From assembly GCA_036517195.1 (NCBI GenBank), contig DATDXU010000005.1, forward strand, positions 4,975 through 68,974: a stretch of DNA of 64,000 nucleotides, written 5' to 3'. The notes below the pieces were generated by a model that had not been told where the DNA came from, ran no database searches, and saw only the letters and a program-made list of their open reading frames with translations. Numbering within the stretch: position 1 is the first letter of the stretch; each line of letters begins with the position of its first letter. This stretch comes from Minisyncoccota bacterium. Its GTDB lineage: Bacteria; Patescibacteriota; Minisyncoccia; Phycocordibacterales; UBA2100. A program made the position numbers and the translations under genes. This document shows, in pieces, positions 5,485-60,759 of this stretch.

Positions 5485-5544
5485 TCCTCGCAGGGAGTGA
5501 TGTTTTAGTGTATCCACGCACCAAAGGATCACCGCGTTATATAA

Positions 5545-5579
5545 GGCGGTATTAGATCCTTGGTGCGGGATTCCGCACC
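5545..5579. repeat. Copy A of a palindromic repeat family with core GGTGCGGGATTYCGCACC
   Basis: Related copies lie at 30800-30833 and 60629-60662. The internal inverted repeat is GGTGCGG/CCGCACC. Confidence 0.5.
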
Positions 5580-5653
5580 GCGAGCAAGCTTTTGGGCTTT
5601 GTTACAAACGTTTGGTATCATGAGCTTGCTCGCGGTGCTTCATTTTAATTCTT

Positions 5654-5704
5654 TGCGGGATCATCTAGTGGTAGGACTTCTCCCTCTGGAGGAGAGTATC
5701 TTGG
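5654..5704 (+). pseudogene. Truncated tRNA-Gln-like fragment (5' 51 nt, D-arm and anticodon arm only)
   Basis: Matches the first 51 nt of the intact tRNA-Gln at 5774 with 2 mismatches, then diverges. It has no T-arm and no acceptor 3' strand. Confidence 0.5.
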
Positions 5705-5773
5705 CCCGCCCCGTTAGATATTTTTGTAGAATACGCGGTTGATACTACAATACACACAGCTTGTTTCCATCGC

Positions 5774-5844
5774 TGCGGGATCGTCTAACGGTAGGACTTC
5801 TCCCTCTGGAGGAGAGTATCTTGGTTCGAGTCCAAGTCCCGCAG
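5774..5844 (+). tRNA. tRNA-Gln (anticodon CTG)
   Basis: Hand-folded cloverleaf with acceptor TGCGGGA/TCCCGCA, anticodon loop CTCTGGA and T-arm CTTGG-TTCGAGT-CCAAG. Confidence 0.75.
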
Positions 5845-5900
5845 CGATGGGCGTAAGCATGCAGATGCCAGTAGTATATGTATATCTAACGGGGTGAAAA

Positions 5901-5915
5901 TCCAAGTCCCGCAGC
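5901..5915 (+). repeat. 15-nt duplicate of the tRNA-Gln 3' end (TCCAAGTCCCGCAGC)
   Basis: Identical to 5831-5845. It abuts the left direct repeat of the islet. Confidence 0.6.
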
Positions 5916-5950
5916 CAGGTTTGAGATAGGTTCGGACTCCGAGGAGCATT
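5912..5950. repeat. Left direct repeat of the islet (CAGCCAGGTTTGAGATAGGTTCGGACTCCGAGGAGCATT)
   Basis: Repeated at 7574-7610 with a single 1-nt indel. Confidence 0.75.
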
Positions 5951-5957
5951 AAAAACT

Positions 5958-6341
5958 ATGAATAATCAAAACAAAGAACCTTGGCAAATAACAGCAGCTC
6001 GGTTTTGCGTAGAGAGAAAAGAGTTTACCTTAAGGGGGTTGGAGACTTTTTTGAAGGAAGAACCGTACAACATTCCTCACGAACACGTAAGAAATTTTTT
6101 CATAGAAAATATTCAAAATCCTCCAGGGCGACAATTCAACAGAGATTTTCGAAAGAGTGCCGAAGGAGAAGGTGGATTGTGGACTGCTCCTTCTGACCTT
6201 GTATCCATGGTGACAGATTATGATGAATTGAGAGAGGCAAGAGAGAGTAGTAGAAAGGCAATGTATATTGCAATCGGGTCTTTGATCGTTGCTACACTAG
6301 TTGGCATTGCTCAAATCATTGTACAGATTTATTACAAATAA
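5958..6341 (+). CDS. Hypothetical protein with a C-terminal TM anchor
   Basis: 127-aa ORF in the islet. The C-terminal hydrophobic helix is IAIGSLIVATLVGIAQIIV. Confidence 0.4.
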   Translation: MNNQNKEPWQITAARFCVERKEFTLRGLETFLKEEPYNIPHEHVRNFFIENIQNPPGRQFNRDFRKSAEGEGGLWTAPSDLVSMVTDYDELREARESSRKAMYIAIGSLIVATLVGIAQIIVQIYYK

Positions 6342-6345
6342 CTTT

Positions 6346-6783
6346 ATGAAGATAATTACTAAAAAGGAATCTGGCAATTCAGGAGAGCAAGAGATTGTAG
6401 ACCTTATCCCATGTCCGAATTGCGGGAAGAAATTGATGAAACTTCCATCAAACTATCCTTTATATGATGTCCAGTGCACTGGGTGTTCATTCCGTGCTCA
6501 AGTTAAAACAAATCAAAGTAAACCAAAATCAGTAGTTTTTGGAGCCGGGTGGCAAATTATGAACAAGGTATTGAAGTCTGGTTATATGACACCACCTCTT
6601 TTTCTAAACTTTAAATGGACAGAGAAAGATGATCAAAAACAAGAAGTCAGATTTTACCCCTTCGTGCCAAAGAAAAATCTCTCTAACTATCGTTTGTCTG
6701 CAACAGCACGTCGTGCAAATTATGAAATGTTTACCTATACGGGAATGGATAAGCTTCCGTATTTTCTAGTATATAAAAAATGA
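6346..6783 (+). CDS. Hypothetical zinc-ribbon protein
   Basis: CPNCGKK...x16...CTGCSF is a pair of CxxC motifs. It overlaps the next ORF by 4 bp (ATGA). Confidence 0.4.
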   Translation: MKIITKKESGNSGEQEIVDLIPCPNCGKKLMKLPSNYPLYDVQCTGCSFRAQVKTNQSKPKSVVFGAGWQIMNKVLKSGYMTPPLFLNFKWTEKDDQKQEVRFYPFVPKKNLSNYRLSATARRANYEMFTYTGMDKLPYFLVYKK

Positions 6784-7478
6784 ACAAGATTCAGGATGAC
6801 ATATTAAGTTATCGTGAGATGTGTGACGCAGAAAATATACAGACACTCCAGCGCGGTATGAATTTTCGAATGAAACCAACATACTCTGTTATTTTGATGT
6901 CTCAAAGATCAAACGCACCGTATCAAGATAGAATTCACGAAGACGGCATAACGATTGAATATGAGGGTCACGATGTTTCTAAAAGAGCTCACGACCATAA
7001 TCCAAAGGCCGAGGATCAGCCAGACAAGTTACCGAGTGGTCGATTAACTCAAAATGGATATTTCATAAAAGCCGCTAAAGACTATAAGGAAAGAGGAACT
7101 GCCCCAGAGTTGGTAAAAGTATATGAAAAGGTATTTCCCGGCGTGTGGTCTCTAAAGGGATTTTTTGATCTAATAGATTACAAAATATTTAATGATGGAA
7201 AACGTAATACGTTTCGTTATATTTTAAGACTTTCTGATCATGGAGAGACGGACACGAGGGTACCGACAAACATCGAACATACTCGCCTAATACCTTCAGA
7301 TGTAAAAAGAGAAGTTTGGAAACGGGATCAGGGTAAATGTGTAATCTGTGGAAATTCTAAGAATTTACACTTCGACCATGATTTACCATTTTCTAGGGGT
7401 GGAACCAGTTTATCAGCAAAGAATGTACGCCTGCTTTGTGTGACTCATAATCTTCAGAAATCAGATAAAATTGAATAG
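6780..7478 (+). CDS. Predicted modification-dependent (type IV-like) restriction endonuclease with an N-terminal SRA/YDG-like domain and a C-terminal HNH nuclease
   Basis: The C-terminus CVICGNSKNLHFDHDLPFSRGG...NVRLLCVTHN is an HNH His-Me finger. The N-terminal block YSVILMS...YQDRIHEDGITIEYEGHD plus VKVYEKVFPGVWSLKGFFDLIDYKI resembles the SRA motifs [26 protein letters not shown] and RYDGIYKVV. This comparison was made from memory, with no search. Confidence 0.55.
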   Translation: MNKIQDDILSYREMCDAENIQTLQRGMNFRMKPTYSVILMSQRSNAPYQDRIHEDGITIEYEGHDVSKRAHDHNPKAEDQPDKLPSGRLTQNGYFIKAAKDYKERGTAPELVKVYEKVFPGVWSLKGFFDLIDYKIFNDGKRNTFRYILRLSDHGETDTRVPTNIEHTRLIPSDVKREVWKRDQGKCVICGNSKNLHFDHDLPFSRGGTSLSAKNVRLLCVTHNLQKSDKIE

Positions 7479-7573
7479 TTGCTCGTTCCTGAAGAGCATC
7501 AAAATAGTAAACTTAAAAGCGTCAGAAAAGCTTTATGGGGTCTCACTTTGAAAAATACGAGACCGAAGGGGTC

Positions 7574-7610
7574 AGCCAGTTTGAGATAGGTTCGGACTCC
7601 GAGGAGCATT
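7574..7610. repeat. Right direct repeat of the islet
   Basis: CAGCCAG-TTTGAGATAGGTTCGGACTCCGAGGAGCATT matches 5912-5950. Confidence 0.75.
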
Positions 7611-7618
7611 GTATCTAT

Positions 7619-8212
7619 ATGCTAAAAATTAGTTTGAGCAAGTATCAACTGAACGAATGTTTAAATTCGTTTTGTTGGACTTTTAAGATTGGCGATAACA
7701 TTCTTTATAATTTAGATCTCATATTCCAACTTGTGGACGACCACAATAAGCTAGCGGGGCGCAAATATGCTAAGCCCATATCAATACTCTGTGTCTCAGT
7801 TATAGAGGGAGCACTTGTTGATTTTTTAGAACGTTTAGATTCTGCAACGCGACATTTCCCGAGTAAACTAGACTCGAAAAAAAAGGACATAAAGAAAGAA
7901 TTAGAGGGAAAAAAGAATGATTTTGAGATAATCTACAAAGGGAAGGTTTATAAGTATAAACGACTAAAAAATTTCGGGTACAAAGAATTGATAAAGTTTT
8001 ACGAGGATTTTAAGATTCTAGGTTCAAGGTCTGCCGATTATCAGATACTGCAAGAGCTGGGTCGTTTCCGCAATCGGGTCCATATTCAAAATTACTTTAG
8101 AAACTTTGAACAAAATGAGTCCTGTACATTCTCTGAAAACAGAAGCCAGAGAGCTATTGATTACATGGAAAGTGTATTTAAATACCTTAGTAAAAACTAT
8201 CCGCGCCCATAA
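7619..8212 (+). CDS. Hypothetical protein from AT-rich DNA, possibly HEPN/Abi-like
   Basis: K/E-rich protein of about 197 aa in low-GC DNA just outside the right direct repeat. ELGRFRNRVHIQ resembles the Rx4-6H motif of HEPN/Abi_2 proteins, but this is weak. Confidence 0.35.
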   Translation: MLKISLSKYQLNECLNSFCWTFKIGDNILYNLDLIFQLVDDHNKLAGRKYAKPISILCVSVIEGALVDFLERLDSATRHFPSKLDSKKKDIKKELEGKKNDFEIIYKGKVYKYKRLKNFGYKELIKFYEDFKILGSRSADYQILQELGRFRNRVHIQNYFRNFEQNESCTFSENRSQRAIDYMESVFKYLSKNYPRP

Positions 8213-8348
8213 TTCATTTTCATTGTTGTCTCAGCTTCGGCCCACTCAGCTGTTCCGAGAAGGGTCGAAATGGTAGAATAAAAGTAATCAAAAAAGTCTT
8301 ATAGAGCTTGATGGGTAAATTTACAAGATCGAGAGGGCCAGCAAAAAT

Positions 8349-10312: not shown

Positions 10313-10338
10313 TTCTAGCTTTTTGCAAAAAGCTAGAA
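10313..10338. promoter_or_regulatory. Perfect 12-2-12 palindrome TTCTAGCTTTTT-GC-AAAAAGCTAGAA (site 1), a putative ArsR-family operator upstream of the regulator gene
   Basis: Identical 26-mers occur at 10603-10628 and 58939-58964. A 12-2-12 dyad is the classic operator architecture for ArsR/SmtB regulators. Confidence 0.55.
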
Positions 10339-10355
10339 TATAATGACGTACACAT

Positions 10356-10631
10356 ATGGCGCAAGAAAAATATCGCGTGTTGGAACGGATTATAAAAGGT
10401 TTTGCGAACCATCGGCGGCTCGCAATTCTTGATTTGTTGAAAAAGAGGCCAGAGCAGACTCTCGACGATATTGTGGAGACACTCGGCATTGGGTACCAAA
10501 ACGCATCGGATCATGTGCGCAAACTTGCGATTGCGGGTCTCGTGGCAAAGCGTAGTGACGGCTTGAATGTGCGACACAAACTTACGCCACGCGCAGAAAC
10601 CATTCTAGCTTTTTGCAAAAAGCTAGAATAA
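10356..10631 (+). CDS. ArsR/SmtB-family HTH transcriptional regulator
   Basis: The 91-aa protein has an HRRLAILDLL...LDDIVETLGIGYQNASDHVRKL winged helix. Confidence 0.7.
   Translation: MAQEKYRVLERIIKGFANHRRLAILDLLKKRPEQTLDDIVETLGIGYQNASDHVRKLAIAGLVAKRSDGLNVRHKLTPRAETILAFCKKLE
10603..10628. promoter_or_regulatory. Palindrome site 2, overlapping the last codons and stop of the ArsR-like gene and upstream of a small Cys-rich ORF
   Basis: Identical 26-mer. The stop codon TAA lies at 10629-10631. Confidence 0.5.
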
Positions 10632-30726: not shown

Positions 30727-30749
30727 ATAAGGGGTGATGAAAAATGAAG

Positions 30750-30776
30750 CACCACGGGCGAGTCCGTGGTGTTTTA
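30750..30776 (+). terminator. Rho-independent terminator after groEL
   Basis: CACCACGG-gcgagt-CCGTGGTG followed by TTTT. Confidence 0.6.
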
Positions 30777-30799
30777 GAGTTTACAGCAAAACCTAAATA

Positions 30800-30833
30800 C
30801 TTGTCCGTGGTGCGGAATCCCGCACCGAGGACC
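30800..30833. repeat. Palindromic repeat family copy B (reverse orientation of the copy at 60629)
   Basis: CTTGTCCGTGGTGCGGAATCCCGCACCGAGGACC is the reverse complement of 60629-60662 except for 1-2 nt. Confidence 0.55.
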
Positions 30834-30933
30834 AGTTCATTTGTGTGTACACTGGTGGTCCTCTGGTGCGTGGAAGAAGGCCGCCCTGTGAGATAGCGAG
30901 CTTTGTGAGCTCAATCTCATAGGACGGTTTTCG

Positions 30934-32050: not shown

Positions 32051-32972
32051 TTGTGTGGAGAAGAATAGAGACGTATTAGGAAGAGAAAACAAAAAGACGG
32101 GTATTTCTCGTCGCACACTTCTCATAGGAGTTTCTGCTGTGGCGGGAGCGACTCTCGGTGGCGTTATCGCACATAGGGCGTTTTCGCCAAAGGAAACCAA
32201 GACCGATTTTCCAAAAAAAACTCCGACGCTCAGTCCAGAGAAAATTCCTACGAGCATTGATCGGGTACATGCAGAGATAGAACATGCGCGCATCCTCCTG
32301 TCTTCAAAAGACCCACTCGATGTTCTCAAAAGCACACATCTTGTGTCTGCCCTGTATTATTCCGACAGATTCCTTGCGTCTATTTTAAAATCAAGTGATA
32401 CGCCTGATGAATCACATGAAATCGTGCGCGGCATTGTCCCCCATATCACCACAGATGTTCGGCGGCGCTATGTGGAAGCTCTTTCAAAAGAGGCGTATAG
32501 AGCATTTGGCGAGCGATCCGAAGAGAAGCGCTCGCTCCCATTTCCGAAGTTAGATTTTGGACGAGGGGACAATCATCCTGATGCAGTGGATATTTTTGCG
32601 CGAGAGGGAACTAAAATCGCCTCTGTTCGAAGGGGTGTCGTTGTTTTGGCGGAATCCGGTTGGACCGAAAAGAATCCGTATCTTGGAACTTCTCCAAGGG
32701 GTGGAAACACAGCTATCGTTTTTAATCAGGATTCCAAACAGTTTTATCGGTATGCTCATCTCGATAGGGTTTCTATACGTACCGGAGAGGTGATAGGGGC
32801 GGGGCATTCCATAGGAACCGTTGGGAGAACTGGCATCAACGCTTTTCAAAATCGTAGCGCCAGTCATGTGCATCTGGAAATTAATGCATATACTCCAGCA
32901 ACACAGGGTATGAGATCGCTCTCGTCTCATGAAGTTAAACAAGAGATTCAAAAAATTAATTCAAATTCGTAA
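32001..32972 (+). CDS. M23 family metallopeptidase (LytM-like); the start is uncertain
   Basis: The C-terminal HxxxD...HVHLEIN Zn-binding motifs (GAGHSIGTVGRTG...SHVHLE). Confidence 0.65.
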   Translation: MERVRWPQKNQLQSSFNCVEKNRDVLGRENKKTGISRRTLLIGVSAVAGATLGGVIAHRAFSPKETKTDFPKKTPTLSPEKIPTSIDRVHAEIEHARILLSSKDPLDVLKSTHLVSALYYSDRFLASILKSSDTPDESHEIVRGIVPHITTDVRRRYVEALSKEAYRAFGERSEEKRSLPFPKLDFGRGDNHPDAVDIFAREGTKIASVRRGVVVLAESGWTEKNPYLGTSPRGGNTAIVFNQDSKQFYRYAHLDRVSIRTGEVIGAGHSIGTVGRTGINAFQNRSASHVHLEINAYTPATQGMRSLSSHEVKQEIQKINSNS

Positions 32973-32977
32973 TTGTA

Positions 32978-33107
32978 TGAATCCCGTTAGAAGTCGCGGA
33001 CGCATGCGAGAGGGGGTGTATACACATAAGTTTTGTGTTATACACTAATCGAGTGGGGGTGTGGAAATTTAAGTTTTTCCGCGTCCTACTTCTAAACGGG
33101 ATGAATA
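32978..33107. repeat. MITE-like element copy E1 (about 130 bp, terminal inverted repeats TGAATCCCGTTAGAAGTCGCGGACGC / CCGCGTCCTACTTCTAAACGGGATGAAT)
   Basis: It is homologous, in inverted orientation, to the copy at 44831-44956. Its right end overlaps the htpX start codon. Confidence 0.55.
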
Positions 33108-33988
33108 TCTACAATGAACGGGGCAAGAATATTAGGAGAACATGGTTGCTCATGGTTGGATTTTTGGTGTTCATTATAGGGCTTGGATATTTTATTTCGT
33201 GGTATATGGGAGAGTCGTGGATTCTCTATATGGCCGTCATTTTTTCTTTCGGTATGAACATCACCGCGTATTGGTTTTCAGACAAAATCGCGCTTTCCGC
33301 AACGAGAGCACATGAGGCGGACGGGGTGAAGTATCTAGAGCTCCACCGCACAGTAGAAAATCTCGCAATTACCGCCGGACTTCCAAAGCCGAGGGTGTAT
33401 GTCATAGAGGACTCGGCGCCAAACGCATTCGCCGCTGGCCGTGATGCGAAGCATGCCGTTGTTGCGGTGACTACGGGACTCCTTGCGCGGCTTGAGAAAA
33501 GCGAACTTGAAGGAGTGATCGCGCACGAACTCTCGCATATCGGAAACAGGGATATTCTCGTTATGACCGTCGCCGTGGTACTTGCCGGATTCGTGGCGAT
33601 TATTGCAGACATATTTCTTCGCATGAGTTTTCATGGGGGAGGTGACAGGGAGATGAGGAATCCTGTCGTCCTCATTGCGGGGATTGTTGCAATTCTTTTG
33701 GCGCCATTTGCGGCAAAGCTGATTCAGCTTTCTATTTCACGCAAGCGAGAATTTCTTGCGGACGCGTCTGGCGCTCTTCTTACGCGGTATCCAGACGGGC
33801 TTGCGTCCGCTCTCAAGAAAATTGCTTCATACGAGGCACCCATGCGACACGCAAATCATGCAACGGCGCATCTATTCATTTCTAATCCGTTTGGCGCGCA
33901 TGAGGCGGGGCCCTTTTTTGCAAAATTATTCTCTACGCATCCACCTGTTGAAGAAAGAATTACAGCGCTCACGGGGATGCGGATGTAG
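33101..33988 (+). CDS. htpX: Zinc metalloprotease HtpX (M48)
   Basis: HELSHIGNRD is an HExxH motif. There are TM helices, and the second Zn-ligand Glu lies in REFLADASGA. Confidence 0.8.
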   Translation: MNIYNERGKNIRRTWLLMVGFLVFIIGLGYFISWYMGESWILYMAVIFSFGMNITAYWFSDKIALSATRAHEADGVKYLELHRTVENLAITAGLPKPRVYVIEDSAPNAFAAGRDAKHAVVAVTTGLLARLEKSELEGVIAHELSHIGNRDILVMTVAVVLAGFVAIIADIFLRMSFHGGGDREMRNPVVLIAGIVAILLAPFAAKLIQLSISRKREFLADASGALLTRYPDGLASALKKIASYEAPMRHANHATAHLFISNPFGAHEAGPFFAKLFSTHPPVEERITALTGMRM

Positions 33989-44712: not shown

Positions 44713-44830
44713 GGCGACTCTCTAAATCAACCCGGGCGCGAAGAAGAGCACCATGCTGATGCTGATGAGAATTGCGAGTACCCCCCACACAATTTTCATT
44801 ATTTTTTTTGTTCGTTTTTCAAATAAGAAG

Positions 44831-44956
44831 CTCATCCCGTTTTAAGTAGGACGCGGAAACACACATCACTCCACATCCTCTCGGTTAGTGTTTGTAATTA
44901 TCGACTTGTTTCACATGTATCTGACGCATGCGTCCGCGACTTCTAACGGGACTCAT
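44831..44956. repeat. MITE-like element copy E3 (homologous to E1, opposite orientation)
   Basis: Right end CGCATGCGTCCGCGACTTCTAACGGGACTCAT is the reverse complement of the E1 left end at 30/31 nt. The left end CTCATCCCGTTTTAAGTAGGACGCGGA matches the E1 right end. The interior shares CACTAAYCGAG..GTGGA. Confidence 0.55.
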
Positions 44957-45199
44957 ACTATCGATGAGGTACACCCCGCAGTAGATGGTGGCGAATGAAT
45001 ACACTCGCGCTTGTGATGCCACACCAACCGCAGTGTACAGGAACAGTATAAGATAGTAATAATTAAATTTCCACTTCTCGCGTGTTCACATTTTGAACAA
45101 TTTCTGTACAAGAAAATCACAAACTGCTCTTGTACAATGATACACCGCCCGTGGTGAGAAGTATCGCCACCATTCACTGACGGGGTACAATTATACTGT

Positions 45200-46246: not shown

Positions 46247-46344
46247 GCCTTTTTCTCCTACATCCACAGGTTCAGTTCTAATCTTGATGCAGTATAAACC
46301 AAATTTTATTATTGTCAACTTTTGTGCGGGCACGGAGAATCCCT

Positions 46345-46363
46345 GCCTGCCGGCAGGCAGGGA
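46345..46363. repeat. Palindrome CCTGCCTGCCGGCAGGCAGG (copy 1), next to tRNA-Gly
   Basis: A second copy lies at 55689-55707 next to tRNA-Val. Confidence 0.5.
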
Positions 46364-46376
46364 ACTCATATTTTGA

Positions 46377-46447
46377 TGCGAGTGGGGGGAATCGAACCCC
46401 CATCTAATGCTTGGGAAGCATTCATTCTGCCACTAAACTACACTCGC
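46377..46447 (-). tRNA. tRNA-Gly (anticodon CCC)
   Basis: Minus-strand cloverleaf with acceptor GCGAGTG/CACTCGC, anticodon loop TTCCCAA and T-loop TTCGATT. Confidence 0.8.
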
Positions 46448-46493
46448 TTACATTTGGGAAGTTTACCCCGTAGGAAGTGCGAAGCAATTTCCT

Positions 46494-46528
46494 GCGGGGC
46501 ATTCATTCTGCCACTAAACTATGCCCGC
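46494..46528 (-). pseudogene. Partial copy of the tRNA-Gly 5' half (acceptor, D-arm and anticodon stem)
   Basis: GCGGGCATAGTTTAGTGGCAGAATGAATGC matches tRNA-Gly positions 1-30 with few changes and has no 3' half. Confidence 0.45.
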
Positions 46529-46589
46529 TTTTTGTTCTCGTATTGCAGTATGGTACACTATAGAAAAATTAATTGGTATATACATATAT

Positions 46590-46991: not shown

Positions 46992-47015
46992 CTGTCACGC
47001 AAGCTTGCGGGACAG
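46992..47015. repeat. Palindrome CTGTCACGCAAGCTTGCGGGACAG (core CCCGCAAGCTTGCGGG), copy 1
   Basis: The same core occurs at 58074-58093 next to tRNA-Glu. A further palindrome GTCCCGCTTGAGCGGGAC lies at 47036-47053. Confidence 0.45.
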
Positions 47016-49070: not shown

Positions 49071-49553
49071 CTACCGACTCCTGACTTTGAGTTTCGTTTG
49101 TTTTGCCTTATTTATTTTTGGAAGACGAATCATGAGAATGCCGTGTTTTTCAGATGCTTCTGCTGAATCCACATCCACTTCTTCGGGCAAGAGAATGGTG
49201 CGCGAGAATGAACCCCAGTAGAGTTCGCGTTGGAAGTAGTTTTCTTCTTCTACCTCTCGCTCGTCTTCGCGCACACCGGAGATGGTGACCATTTCGCGCG
49301 TGAGCGCGATGTCAACTGAGGTTGGCTGAATACCTGCAATAAGAGCTTTTACCACGAGCGCGTCCGGGGTTTGATAAATATCTACCGCAAGTTCTCCACC
49401 ACCGTCTTCAGGCACAGCTACATCTTGTGCCGCGATGTGTGCGTGAGAATGACGCTCTGCGCCCTTGCCCTCAAAGACAATGGGTGTTGTGTCCTCGGTC
49501 TCGTCATCAGACCCGAGTAGGCGAGTGAATAAAGATGGTTTGAGTAGCGACAT
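49071..49553 (-). CDS. Hsp20/alpha-crystallin family small heat shock protein
   Basis: Alpha-crystallin domain pattern AVDIYQT...VVKALIAGI...GILMIRLPK. Confidence 0.8.
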   Translation of the reverse strand: MSLLKPSLFTRLLGSDDETEDTTPIVFEGKGAERHSHAHIAAQDVAVPEDGGGELAVDIYQTPDALVVKALIAGIQPTSVDIALTREMVTISGVREDEREVEEENYFQRELYWGSFSRTILLPEEVDVDSAEASEKHGILMIRLPKINKAKQTKLKVRSR

Positions 49554-49580
49554 GGCGTTTATTTTTTTCGCAGTTTTGGG

Positions 49581-49710
49581 TGTATCCCGTTAGAAATAAG
49601 AAGCTTGCGCTCCTGGCCTGAGAGTTGCACCTTGCTGCTATTCGTTTCTTTTGACATATTTTTTATGTACTACCAGTCAAACTTCTGCGATTTCTAACGG
49701 GATGAATGCG
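49581..49710. repeat. MITE-like element copy E2 (divergent member, inverted repeats TATCCCGTTAGAAAT / ATTTCTAACGGGATGAATG)
   Basis: 14-16 bp terminal inverted repeats share the TCCCGTTAGAA core with E1 and E3. The interior differs. Confidence 0.45.
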
Positions 49711-50394
49711 TTTTACGTATTCAAGCACGGCGAGCAGTACAATGACCCCAATCCATACCAAAGAAAAGGTTCGCAATAGATGCTCTTCCGATACAGTAAG
49801 TATAAGGAAGTTGAAAGTACTGTGCAAAAGCGCGGCGAGGATAACTCCAATCCACGCGAAGTGTATACGTGCCCTTTCCCCCCTGTAGAATGAAAGTGCT
49901 ATGGCGACACCCACGACAGCAGAGGAAAGAACGTGGAGTAACGTGGCGCCCAAGAAGCGCAAGTTGCCCGTCATGACCGTTTCAACGAGGGTATTTCCCG
50001 CAAGTGGACTCAATAAAAAGAGCGTGTTTTCTATTGCCGCAAAACCAAGTGCCACAGTTACCATATAGATAACGGGATCAATCGGTTCATCATCTTCGCG
50101 TCTTCGCAATACAGTGAGTCGCGCTGCGAGATATTTGACAACTTCCTCGATAACAGACCACGCTGTAAAAATTATGACTGTTCCAGTCAAAAATCCCGCG
50201 GCGAATTTTTGGATCGGAATAACAACGGCAACGCTTATCATGCCCGCGAGGAATGCGAGCGCGATCAAGTATCGTGGTTCCGGATGTTCAGAATCTTCGC
50301 GGAGCCAAAACCACAACCAAGCAAGGGCAGGGAAGATGCCGCCCGCAATCGCTATCACGAAAGGAAAAATTTCAGTCATGGAGTAGTAGTCCAT
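49663..50394 (-). CDS. PrsW-family intramembrane metalloprotease (putative)
   Basis: A polytopic membrane protein with EEVVKYL (EExxK), FAAIENTLF (FxxxE) and a HVLSSAV (H) motif. Confidence 0.5.
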   Translation of the reverse strand: MDYYSMTEIFPFVIAIAGGIFPALAWLWFWLREDSEHPEPRYLIALAFLAGMISVAVVIPIQKFAAGFLTGTVIIFTAWSVIEEVVKYLAARLTVLRRREDDEPIDPVIYMVTVALGFAAIENTLFLLSPLAGNTLVETVMTGNLRFLGATLLHVLSSAVVGVAIALSFYRGERARIHFAWIGVILAALLHSTFNFLILTVSEEHLLRTFSLVWIGVIVLLAVLEYVKRIHPVRNRRSLTGST

Positions 50395-55688: not shown

Positions 55689-55707
55689 CCCTGCCTGCCG
55701 GCAGGCA
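55689..55707. repeat. Palindrome CTGCCTGCCGGCAGGCAGG (copy 2), about 65 bp upstream of tRNA-Val
   Basis: Matches 46345-46363. Confidence 0.5.
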
Positions 55708-55812
55708 GGTAAGCGCGCCATCGTACACCATTATACTTATTACTGTGAAAATGCTATAAAGCACGAGGTTCGTTGCTCGCTAGCAGGGCAATAATAGAGG
55801 AGAATACACACA

Positions 55813-58073: not shown

Positions 58074-58093
58074 GTCCCGCAAGCTTGCGGGAC
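58074..58093. repeat. Palindrome GTCCCGCAAGCTTGCGGGAC (copy 2), next to tRNA-Glu
   Basis: Shares the CCCGCAAGCTTGCGGG core with 46992-47015. A second inverted repeat GTCGCGA-N9-TCGCGAC lies at 58040-58066. Confidence 0.45.
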
Positions 58094-58815: not shown

Positions 58816-58938
58816 TGTGTTGTGAGTATGGGGCGTGTGCGGGAGGAATCTCGCCACGCTCCATTTTTTATGGAATGTACTTTTCTTGAAATGGCCATAC
58901 ACTATATATAGTTTTGAAAAGGTATGAAAATTACACCA

Positions 58939-58964
58939 TTCTAGCTTTTTGCAAAAAGCTAGAA
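58939..58964. promoter_or_regulatory. Palindrome site 3, identical to the 26-mer at 10313, upstream of a secreted-protein gene
   Basis: Exact match to TTCTAGCTTTTTGCAAAAAGCTAGAA. Confidence 0.5.
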
Positions 58965-60540: not shown

Positions 60541-60628
60541 GAACACATGCGCTCCCCAAAAGGGGAGCGTTCTTCCACGCACCAGAGGACCAGGGGTTTA
60601 CTTACGGGGTTTACTTACGGACGAATGG

Positions 60629-60710
60629 GTCCTCGGTGCGGGATTTCGCACCACGGACAAGCTTTCGTATTTTGTCGTATGTCCAAATGGTATGAGCTTG
60701 TCCGTGGTGC
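60629..60710. repeat. Palindromic repeat family copy C plus a flanking inverted half-copy
   Basis: GGTCCTCGGTGCGGGATTTCGCACCACGGACAAGC, then 33 bp, then GCTTGTCCGTGGTGC. The tandem repeat GGGGTTTACTTAC x2 lies at 60593-60618. Confidence 0.5.
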
Positions 60711-60759
60711 TTCATTTTTACTGTGATAGAATCACACAATTATATAATCTAAAAAAGGT

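Follow-up and report, generated by a model that had tools for sequence, protein, structure and literature searches.

Hairpin-forming miniature elements at gene starts in bacteria of the candidate phyla radiation and their likely GIY-YIG nuclease-coding relatives

Inverted-repeat elements in a 64-kb genome segment

We analyzed a 64-kb stretch of contig DATDXU010000005.1 (64,000 nucleotides, here called the window) from a Kaiserbacteria-like bacterium of the candidate phyla radiation (CPR), in which a short inverted-repeat element, E1, lies between an M23 peptidase gene (ending at position 32972) and htpX, which encodes an M48 peptidase (33101 to 33988, plus strand). Sequence 99.9 to 100% identical to the window population is also present in ENA (ERZ27254752), JGI (3300002502), and Logan assemblies. 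E1 (32982 to 33101, plus strand) is a 120-nt non-autonomous element in gene orientation, with a left arm of TCCCGTTAGAAGT-CGC-GGACGC and a right arm of GCGTCC-T-ACTTCTAAACGGGA. It is bracketed by a duplicated target, TGAA, at 32978 to 32981 and at 33102 to 33105 (both on the plus strand), and the wider flanks read ATGAAT on both sides. The last base of E1, A33101, is also the first base of the htpX start codon (33101 to 33103), whose TG comes from the right copy of the duplicated target; this start is supported by an identical 295-aa NCBI protein model and by 296-aa homologues that span 100% of the query. A relic ATG (32977 to 32979), made of A32977 and the left copy of TGAA, opens a 23-codon upstream open reading frame (uORF) that reads MNPVRSRGRMREGVYTHKFCVIH and then stops. 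An initial annotation of the window had proposed that E1 supplies the start context or promoter of htpX; the start codon is indeed shared with the element, while a promoter role is unsupported. We conclude that E1 is an old, non-autonomous copy seated at the htpX start codon.

Two more copies lie on the minus strand. E2 (44835 to 44951), a 117-nt copy of the E1 subfamily in the orientation opposite to E1, is flanked by CTCA at 44831 to 44834 and 44952 to 44955, which on the gene strand is TGAG on both sides (wider flanks, ATGAGT and ATGAGC). It adjoins lepA and occupies the ATGA stop/start overlap of two small open reading frames (ORFs) on the minus strand: one of 74 aa (44953 to 45177), whose stop lies in the left duplication copy, and a hydrophobic one of 37 codons (44722 to 44835), whose first base is the last base of E2. 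E3 (49585 to 49702), a 118-nt copy of a different subfamily with arms ATCCCGTTAGAAAT and ATTTCTAACGGGAT, is inserted in the last codons of prsW (49663 to 50394, minus strand), and the hsp20 ATG (49553) follows 31 nt downstream. Its flanks have decayed to TTCA and TACA on the plus strand (TGTA and TGAA on the gene strand). E2 and E3 are the inverted homologous copy and the divergent copy that had initially been placed at 44831 to 44956 and 49581 to 49710, and the quoted end sequences were found in their places.

The arms of E1 and E2 are near-identical (37-nt arm, 95% complementary) and their interiors are far more diverged, while the arm pair of E3 is perfect over 14 nt. The terminal inverted repeat (TIR) of about 27 nt first ascribed to these elements describes the E1/E2 subfamily but not the family as a whole, whose conserved terminus is 13 nt (YCCCGTTAGAART / AYTTCTAACGGGR) with very variable interiors. 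In gene orientation, E1 to E3 share a plan that begins with (A/G)TCCCGTTAGAA(G/A)T, CGC, and an inner stem and continues with about 70 variable nt, the inner stem, 1 nt, and A(C/T)TTCTAA(A)CGGGA. Compared with E1 and E2, E3 carries compensatory changes in both stems (outer stem, G:C to A:T; inner stem, GGACGC/GCGTCC to AGAAG/CTTCT), and the asymmetric bulge (CGC versus 1 nt) is kept. The stems fold at -38 to -53 kcal/mol with z-scores of -5.2, -3.7, and -4.2 for E1, E2, and E3, and none of 200 shuffles was equally stable. Within the window, the 12-mer core, exact or with one mismatch, occurs solely at paired positions. Coding content is limited to incidental short uORFs, and the arms measure 13 to 27 nt. 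E1, E2, and E3 are homologous hairpin-forming miniature inverted-repeat transposable elements (MITEs) of one family.

The end at 5882, first reported as solo, proves to be the right arm of a fourth element, E4 (5709 to 5894, plus strand). This 186-nt element has arms CCCCGTTAGATAT (5709 to 5721) and ATATCTAACGGGG (5882 to 5894) that are complementary at 13 of 13 positions, and its right flank is TGAA (5895 to 5898). Inside it lies an intact tRNA-Gln(CTG) gene (5774 to 5845, plus strand). E4 itself interrupts the T-loop of an older tRNA-Gln, whose 5' 51 nt (5654 to 5704, plus strand) are 94% identical to the inner copy and whose 3' end with CCA (TCCAAGTCCCGCAGCCA, 5900 to 5916, plus strand) lies outside the element. 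The outer interrupted tRNAs were not recovered as spliceable genes by ARAGORN with intron options, and we treat them as relics. With E4, the window holds 4 copies per 64 kb, a density of about 1 per 10 to 16 kb.

Elements with the same arms also enclose tRNA genes at loci L001, L057, and L149. At the tRNA-associated loci (L001, 13660 to 13890; L057, 1230 to 1560; L149, 3626 to 3896; L005, 4300 to 4700), whole tRNA genes (Gly, Val, and Ala) lie within arms and are inserted in other tRNA-like sequences; the L057 insertion interrupts the anticodon loop of a tRNA that is complete in other respects, and in L005 a GIY-YIG gene adjoins a tRNA whose 5' 22 nt are duplicated. It appears that tRNA genes repeatedly serve as target and as cargo. 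We rejected the notion that the arms are processing stems flanking tRNA genes, since just 3 tRNA-enclosing cases (E4, L001, and L057) occur among about 145 short copies. A nesting that resembles that of tRNA-Gln and E4 is found elsewhere in the window (46318 to 46530, minus strand), where an intact tRNA-Gly(CCC) gene (46377 to 46447) sits in the relic of a different tRNA-Gly. The 5' 30 nt of the relic are at 46501 to 46530 and its 3' part, TGCCCGCA, is near 46318 to 46325; its acceptor halves pair with each other and not with the inner gene. A 33-nt hairpin (CCCGCAGGAA..TTCCTACGGGG, 46466 to 46498) lies beside this nested gene.

Empty sites and target duplication

The site between prsW and hsp20 is occupied in some genomes and empty in others. 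In L001, where hsp20 is 82% identical, the prsW stop and the hsp20 ATG are 2 nt apart with a single ATTCAC and no element. In L004 (85% identical), the same site holds a 99-nt element whose interior is unrelated and whose flanks are perfect ATTCAT repeats, and in the window and in L124 (a 96%-identical relative) it is filled by E3. Likewise, htpX orthologues in relatives (78 to 81% identity) have no element upstream. Positions 1 to 200 of L124, aligned with window positions 49553 to 49752, differ at 1 position in about 200 nt (E3 with some 70 nt of flank on either side), with no difference within E3, whereas the adjacent hsp20 region has 24 differences in about 440 nt. This low divergence points to a recombination tract or to selection acting on the element as a whole.

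Among the 147 copies listed, flank positions 2 to 5 are equal on both sides in 69 to 76%, compared with 44 to 54% for the outermost positions, and the terminal bases next to CCCG/CGGG are complementary in 96%. From these two patterns we define the element as YCCCGTTAGAART...AYTTCTAACGGGR and its target duplication as the 4-bp sequence T-K-M-A, usually TGAA or its complement TTCA. With the commonest flanks, a copy would read TGAA-YCCCGTTAGAGAT...ATCTCTAACGGGR-TGAA. Rare duplications (TGGA, TGAG, TCAA, TAAA, and TGCG) co-vary between the two flanks. The family is thus mobile, with defined termini and a 4-bp duplication. The features by which MITEs are recognized were all found: multiple non-coding copies below about 300 bp with TIRs, target duplication, presence/absence polymorphism, and a longer coding form. 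The initial proposal of a MITE-like family is well founded, given the filled and empty sites, the co-varying duplication, the nested and tandem copies, and the longer coding relatives described below.

Distribution across CPR bacteria

We scanned 185,579 species genomes for a two-arm pattern that required perfect arms and obtained at least 119 loci, where we estimate that about 8 would be expected by chance. The search for further copies by arm pattern, as first recommended, has turned up hundreds in other genomes. The hosts among the matches listed are mostly CPR/Patescibacteria of many classes, with a few metagenome-assembled genomes (MAGs) labeled as non-CPR, and they include Saccharibacteria, Kaiser-, Nomura-, Moran-, Doudna-, Falkow-, Jorgensen-, Taylor-, Yanofsky-, and Komeilibacteria, Kazan, and others. 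Short copies among these matches are about 45 to 140 nt long. Many 8-kb loci hold two or three copies, some of them nested or in tandem. We found no match to the element in viral contigs and no published description of the motif or of CPR MITEs in the literature.

Insertion at start codons

An RTG immediately after ...AACGGG opens an ORF of at least 50 codons in 76 of the 142 copies listed (85 with a looser pattern). As at htpX, the element contributes the R of this RTG with its last base, and the TG belongs to the duplicated target. The ORFs downstream of 73 such copies match 118 Pfam families, including DnaA, MreB, aminoacyl-tRNA synthetases, ATP synthase, and ClpP; they are unrelated housekeeping genes with no enrichment for stress functions. 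The preferred surviving site is A/TGAA (the slash marks the point of insertion) in the first two codons of a gene; the host start is rebuilt as ATG or GTG, and the old ATG is left upstream as a relic. Copies with C...G-type termini read ATGAAC on the left and GTGAA on the right, which shows that the host start was turned into GTG.

Before the relic ATG, TANNNT (-10) boxes cluster sharply at a spacing of 6 to 7 nt (21 of 59 copies, of which 12 have a TGn extension too). This spacing is the geometry of leaderless mRNA, and many of the target genes look leaderless. In 19 of the 59 copies, a uORF beginning with the relic ATG (MNPVR(N/S)...) spans the whole element; such a full-length uORF terminates either with the right-arm TAA, which lies 4 nt ahead of the host start, or with the TGA of an ATGA overlap. 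Orientation is also biased: of 30 asymmetric copies, 27 have the asymmetric end (T/C)CC(T/G)A-AYWTCTAACGGG (e.g., TCCTA) turned toward the RTG side, with a called gene in 24.

Longer relatives that encode a GIY-YIG nuclease

At locus L075 (3889 to 4164), a 276-nt element with the same arms carries an 84-aa ORF with a GIY-YIG domain (PF01541, E = 3.6e-16). A metagenome scan for perfect arms 238 to 268 nt apart yielded at least 120 loci, compared with about 10 expected by our estimate, with a length peak at 277 nt. Among the 121 elements listed, 101 contain an ORF of at least 80 aa and 98 a GIY-YIG pattern, so that about 81 to 83% of the listed ~277-nt elements carry the nuclease ORF, which takes up almost the entire element. 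The encoded proteins are 84 to 96 aa long (about 86) and share a mean identity of 62% with conserved catalytic positions. Their consensus is MyYtYVLqSkKDgkwYTGxTnDLRKRF..HN.Gk..STKgRGPFeLIYYEACLNEqDAraREKYLKSGMGKRYLKNRLKRFLSLTG, also written MYYTYVI...KNRLKRFLSLTG.

The nuclease ORF is fused into both the termini and the target. The right arm itself encodes its C-terminal ..FLSLTG. In 60 of the 98 nuclease-bearing elements listed, the stop codon ends 4 nt past the element, meaning that the stop is the TGA or TAA of the target duplication, and in 22 of the 98 the TAA of the arm is used instead. A host ORF follows the nuclease stop in 41 of these 98. At the other end, about half of the best 120 of at least 5,687 homologues are called as proteins of 94 to 99 aa, and those fetched begin with M(N/S/I)PVRD; this M-N-P-V-R-D extension corresponds to a reading frame that opens at the relic host ATG and runs through the left arm. 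Short and long forms also co-reside, with short copies on 22 of the 120 nuclease-bearing contigs listed.

At least 5,687 protein clusters match the nuclease, and those with an organism name belong almost all to CPR lineages. They are annotated as "GIY-YIG nuclease family protein" or, wrongly, as "excinuclease ABC subunit C." An AlphaFold model (pLDDT 89.6) predicts a single GIY-YIG domain followed by a long basic C-terminal helix, and its best matches are UPF0213 BH0048, the I-TevI catalytic domain, and the UvrC-N GIY-YIG domain. UPF0213 BH0048 is also the nearest solved protein (E = 1.7e-5), and the NCBIfam match is weak and below threshold. A tblastn search of the nuclease against plasmids returned UPF0213-type genes (YazA) only.

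A search for a cognate transposase, which the initial annotation had advised, led elsewhere: the window holds no transposase, and the coding relatives encode a tiny GIY-YIG nuclease. Taken together, these findings make it likely that E1 to E3, as MITEs, and E4, as a tRNA-carrying copy, belong to one small mobile family that extends across the CPR and includes the GIY-YIG coding form.

Comparison with known systems

The closest described system is that of Ssn and NTS. Ssn proteins (SsnA) are 94-aa single-domain GIY-YIG nucleases that cut single-stranded DNA (ssDNA) only, beside hairpin repeats termed NTS/SRM; these repeats flank the genes of the nucleases and number in the hundreds, and the insertion sequence (IS)-like layout NTS-ssnA-NTS was remarked on by the authors (Chenal et al., Nat Commun 2025, PMC11893778). 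The CPR family has in common with it a single-domain GIY-YIG protein, here of 86 to 95 aa, a gene bracketed on both sides by a hairpin-forming repeat that is also abundant without the gene and lies mostly in intergenic positions beside genes, and a repeat core that starts ..CAT(T)CCCG.. in both. However, the repeats of the CPR family are the halves of one long-range inverted repeat with 13-nt termini, not two self-contained hairpins of 20 to 50 nt, and the CPR ORF is fused into the termini, with its stop (and often its start) borrowed from the target. Target duplications, empty sites, MITE derivatives, and start-codon targeting go unreported in the description of Ssn, and CPR hosts are not mentioned there (PMC11893778). 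Head-to-head junctions of right arm, 3 to 4 nt, and left arm occur at L075 (3871 to 3901), L020 (7778 to 7808), and L119 (about 7680 to 7700); they form 13-bp hairpins with a 3- to 4-nt loop that look like self-contained NTS-type hairpins of Neisseria Ssn and may be a link between the two repeat architectures. The CPR family is a superphylum-wide, previously undescribed variant of the GIY-YIG/hairpin-repeat theme with the hallmarks of a transposon.

Several other small repeats share parts of this organization. Correia elements (NEMIS/CREE) of Neisseria are genus-specific, uniform copies of about 105 or 155 bp with a 26-bp TIR and a TA duplication, and we know of no classical transposase identified for them. 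Together with ERIC, RUP, and RPE elements, they resemble the short CPR copies in being non-coding sequences of 100 to 160 nt with TIRs, a duplication, and long hairpins, located between genes and co-transcribed with their neighbors. In contrast to Correia elements, the CPR family has a TKMA duplication, unrelated 13-nt termini, variable interiors, a superphylum-wide range, positions at start codons, and a coding full-length form. The PATEs of IS200/IS605 and the REP/RAYT system (REPINs) offer parallels in hairpin recognition, probably in ssDNA, in tiny derivatives, in a tetranucleotide target, and in one small protein gene between structured ends. Those systems, however, use a Y1 (HUH) transposase with covalent strand transfer and subterminal hairpins and make no duplication, whereas the CPR family has a duplication and a GIY-YIG protein. 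IS1380 and piggyBac elements have CC(C) ends, a 4- to 5-bp duplication (TTAA in piggyBac), and a DDE transposase of more than 400 aa, and the piggyBac TIR, which we take to be CCCTAGAAAG, resembles CCCGTTAGAAAT of the CPR family; they differ in that no DDE gene was found with CPR termini in about 0.9 Mb of CPR loci or in the window, a sampling that is not exhaustive.

Free-standing and intron-less GIY-YIG homing endonucleases and the insertions in CPR rRNA genes also come to mind, since a small GIY-YIG ORF is the sole gene of a selfish insertion in CPR genomes and the targets are structured RNAs (tRNA in the present case). Homing, however, copies an element into a homologous empty allele without duplication or inverted termini, whereas the sites of the CPR family are unrelated genes that share TKMA only. 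A study of CPR rRNA genes found GIY-YIG ORFs in insertions that are not introns, along with many short ORF-less insertions (PMC11270868), and these may represent the same family.

Proposed mechanism and competing explanations

We propose, by analogy, that the nuclease acts in trans on the short copies and could thereby mobilize both forms. It would recognize the arm-arm hairpin in single-stranded DNA and cut at the boundary between arm and target, and host repair or ligation would complete the reaction. Host expression would be kept by the rebuilt RTG and by the hairpin, which would draw both ends together; a uORF or nuclease ORF that stops 4 nt before the host start, or overlaps it, might add translational coupling. 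In the case of htpX, the gene now begins with an element-derived A behind a 120-nt hairpin.

On a stronger proposal we are evenly divided: that the ~277-bp elements are autonomous transposons of an unrecognized class, among the smallest, whose sole protein is an Ssn-like GIY-YIG nuclease of about 86 aa. Such elements would parasitize the 5' ends of genes, often leaderless ones, by using the promoter and start of the host, a stop derived from the duplication, and a coupled rebuilt start; E1 to E3 would be their deletion derivatives, and the class would explain part of the short insertions in CPR tRNA and rRNA genes.

Several observations weigh against these proposals. GIY-YIG enzymes are hydrolytic, and to our knowledge no strand-transfer activity has been described for them. 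Short and long forms resemble each other in no more than their terminal 13 to 25 nt, polarity, and target, and a perfect 4/4 duplication is present in just 43 of the 98 nuclease-bearing copies listed. The 64-kb window lacks a GIY-YIG gene, and Pfam domains of a transposase or integrase are absent from its called genes, which leaves a partner in this genome unproven. No match to the published SRM motif, HGTCWYN(0-2)YYVSBRHN(0-5)WNVSBRGN(0-2)RNCYNB, was found in the window (0.32 expected from shuffles) or within 100 nt of the 121 nuclease-bearing elements, so we treat the CPR proteins as Ssn-like and not as proven members of Ssn. Support for a role of the hairpin in RNA is weak: the sense-strand fold is more stable in 50 of 84 copies, and the z-score difference is not significant after control for shuffling and composition. 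Both scans required perfect arms and are described by the matches listed, so that the proportions come from a biased sample of MAGs and metagenome contigs. As for Ssn in Neisseria, it modulates transformation, and its transposition was not demonstrated (PMC11893778). Finally, a minority class has a constant ACTTGT or GCTTGY outside one arm and lacks a duplication. Elements of this class (L006, L016, L025, L049, L057, L063, L094, L095, L099, L104, and L111; L148, L149, and L157) carry a normal RTGAA on the other side and could be a longer end variant or a recombination product between copies.

The main rival is that these are ordinary MITEs moved by an unsampled DDE transposase, with an IS1380/piggyBac-like enzyme as a candidate, and that the GIY-YIG gene is cargo or a nested selfish gene. 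The CCC-starting termini, the 4-bp duplication, and the pattern-palindromic TKMA target are typical of DDE transposition, strand transfer is not something for which GIY-YIG nucleases are known, and other cargo exists in the tRNA genes of E4, L001, L057, and L149. Nevertheless, arm pairs 0.4 to 3.5 kb apart with matching flanks and a long ORF were absent from about 0.9 Mb of CPR loci (again a sampling that is not exhaustive), no transposase domain appeared in the window region, and the nuclease ORF is present in most of the listed ~277-nt elements. Furthermore, the last codons of this ORF are the right arm, its stop comes from the duplication in 60 of the 98 copies listed, and its start is often supplied by the left arm and relic ATG; such tight integration with both termini argues against a DDE element with cargo. 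We consider this account unlikely. Less probable still is a host-level system similar to NTS and SsnA of Neisseria, in which a domesticated nuclease and repeats that mark DNA for control of transformation or recombination would operate without active transposition. CPR bacteria depend on DNA uptake, and the Neisseria DNA uptake sequence (DUS), which we take to be GCCGTCTGAA, resembles the 10-mer of the CPR family at 7 of 10 positions. The Ssn precedent, the conservation of arms across the superphylum while interiors diverge, and the low divergence of E3 and its flanks in L124 would all suit such a system. It is at odds with arm pairs that have target duplications instead of scattered single motifs, with filled and empty sites that differ between close relatives, with insertions within tRNA genes and the coding end of prsW, and with a density far sparser than that of uptake sequences.

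The presence of E1 before htpX and of E3 before hsp20 invites the view that the copies are cis-regulatory RNA hairpins (for heat-shock control, as RNase III sites, or as terminators) repeated for their function. The hairpins are very stable, sense folds are slightly more so, and orientation relative to the downstream gene is biased 27 to 3. However, stems of the stability found here are not thermometer-like, the strand asymmetry is not significant, and the target duplications would be left unexplained. In Rfam 15, nothing reached the gathering threshold and E1 had no match even at E <= 1. We therefore rejected both an RNA thermometer or structured noncoding RNA, on account of the Rfam and folding results, and a heat-shock element, given that hsp20 and htpX orthologues in relatives lack the element and that genes downstream of the family are unrelated; the link to htpX and hsp20 is coincidental. 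As a general account, regulatory RNA is highly improbable. We give practically no credence to integron attC-like or other site-specific recombination sites or to chance inverted repeats. An outer stem, asymmetric bulge, inner stem, and variable loop between co-oriented genes, with GTTAGAA and TTCTAAC in the arms, do recall attC, but the motif order is reversed (5'-GTTAGAA...TTCTAAC-3' versus RYYYAAC...GTTRRRY) and no integrase is present in the window; the reversed order and the duplications refute an attC-like site. Chance is excluded by the core positions, the shuffle folding, and the recurrence of the arms at 119 or more loci.

Should mobilization by the nuclease prove correct, Ssn-type GIY-YIG nucleases would gain a natural role as a transposon-like engine, and with ends, target, and footprint defined, the IS-like layout described in 2025 could be put to a direct test. 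The elements form a major family of repeats in the genomes of CPR/Patescibacteria, where mobile DNA is otherwise scarce, and they explain mis-called N termini as well as the misannotation of proteins of 86 to 95 aa as "excinuclease ABC subunit C." Their hosts show an unusual tolerance of insertion at start codons, even in essential genes such as dnaA, and the insertion sites are indirect evidence that leaderless genes are common in CPR bacteria. There could be practical uses, too, for a sequence-specific ssDNA nuclease that has a recognition arm of 13 nt.

Other repeats in the window

A second repeat family, of about 170 nt and 76 to 80% identity, occurs at 5513 to 5646, 30740 to 30898, and 60550 to 60719, with one copy after groEL. 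It contains a perfect internal 16-nt inverted repeat (GCACCGCGAGCAAGCT / AGCTTGCTCGCGGTGC) and has a weak, sub-threshold Rfam match to ncS54 (E = 0.004). A perfect 27-nt palindrome, TTCTAGCTTTTTGCAAAAAGCTAGAA(T), is present in three copies (10313 to 10339, 10602 to 10628, and 58938 to 58964), two of which bracket a small ArsR/HTH_5-type regulator gene (10356 to 10631); it is possibly the operator of that regulator or a terminator. Adjoining the tRNA-Gln is a low-GC island (about 37.5%; 5919 to 8250) that encodes DpnI-like and HNH-motif proteins and has a perfect 32-nt direct repeat at 5919 to 5950 and, within the island, at 7579 to 7610. It is probably a horizontally acquired restriction-type island. 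GC-rich perfect palindromes, CCCTGCCTGCCGGCAGGCAGGG (46341 to 46364 and 55689 to 55712) and GTCCCGCAAGCTTGCGGGAC (46992 to 47015 and 58074 to 58093), adjoin tRNA genes and are likely terminators or another small repeat family.

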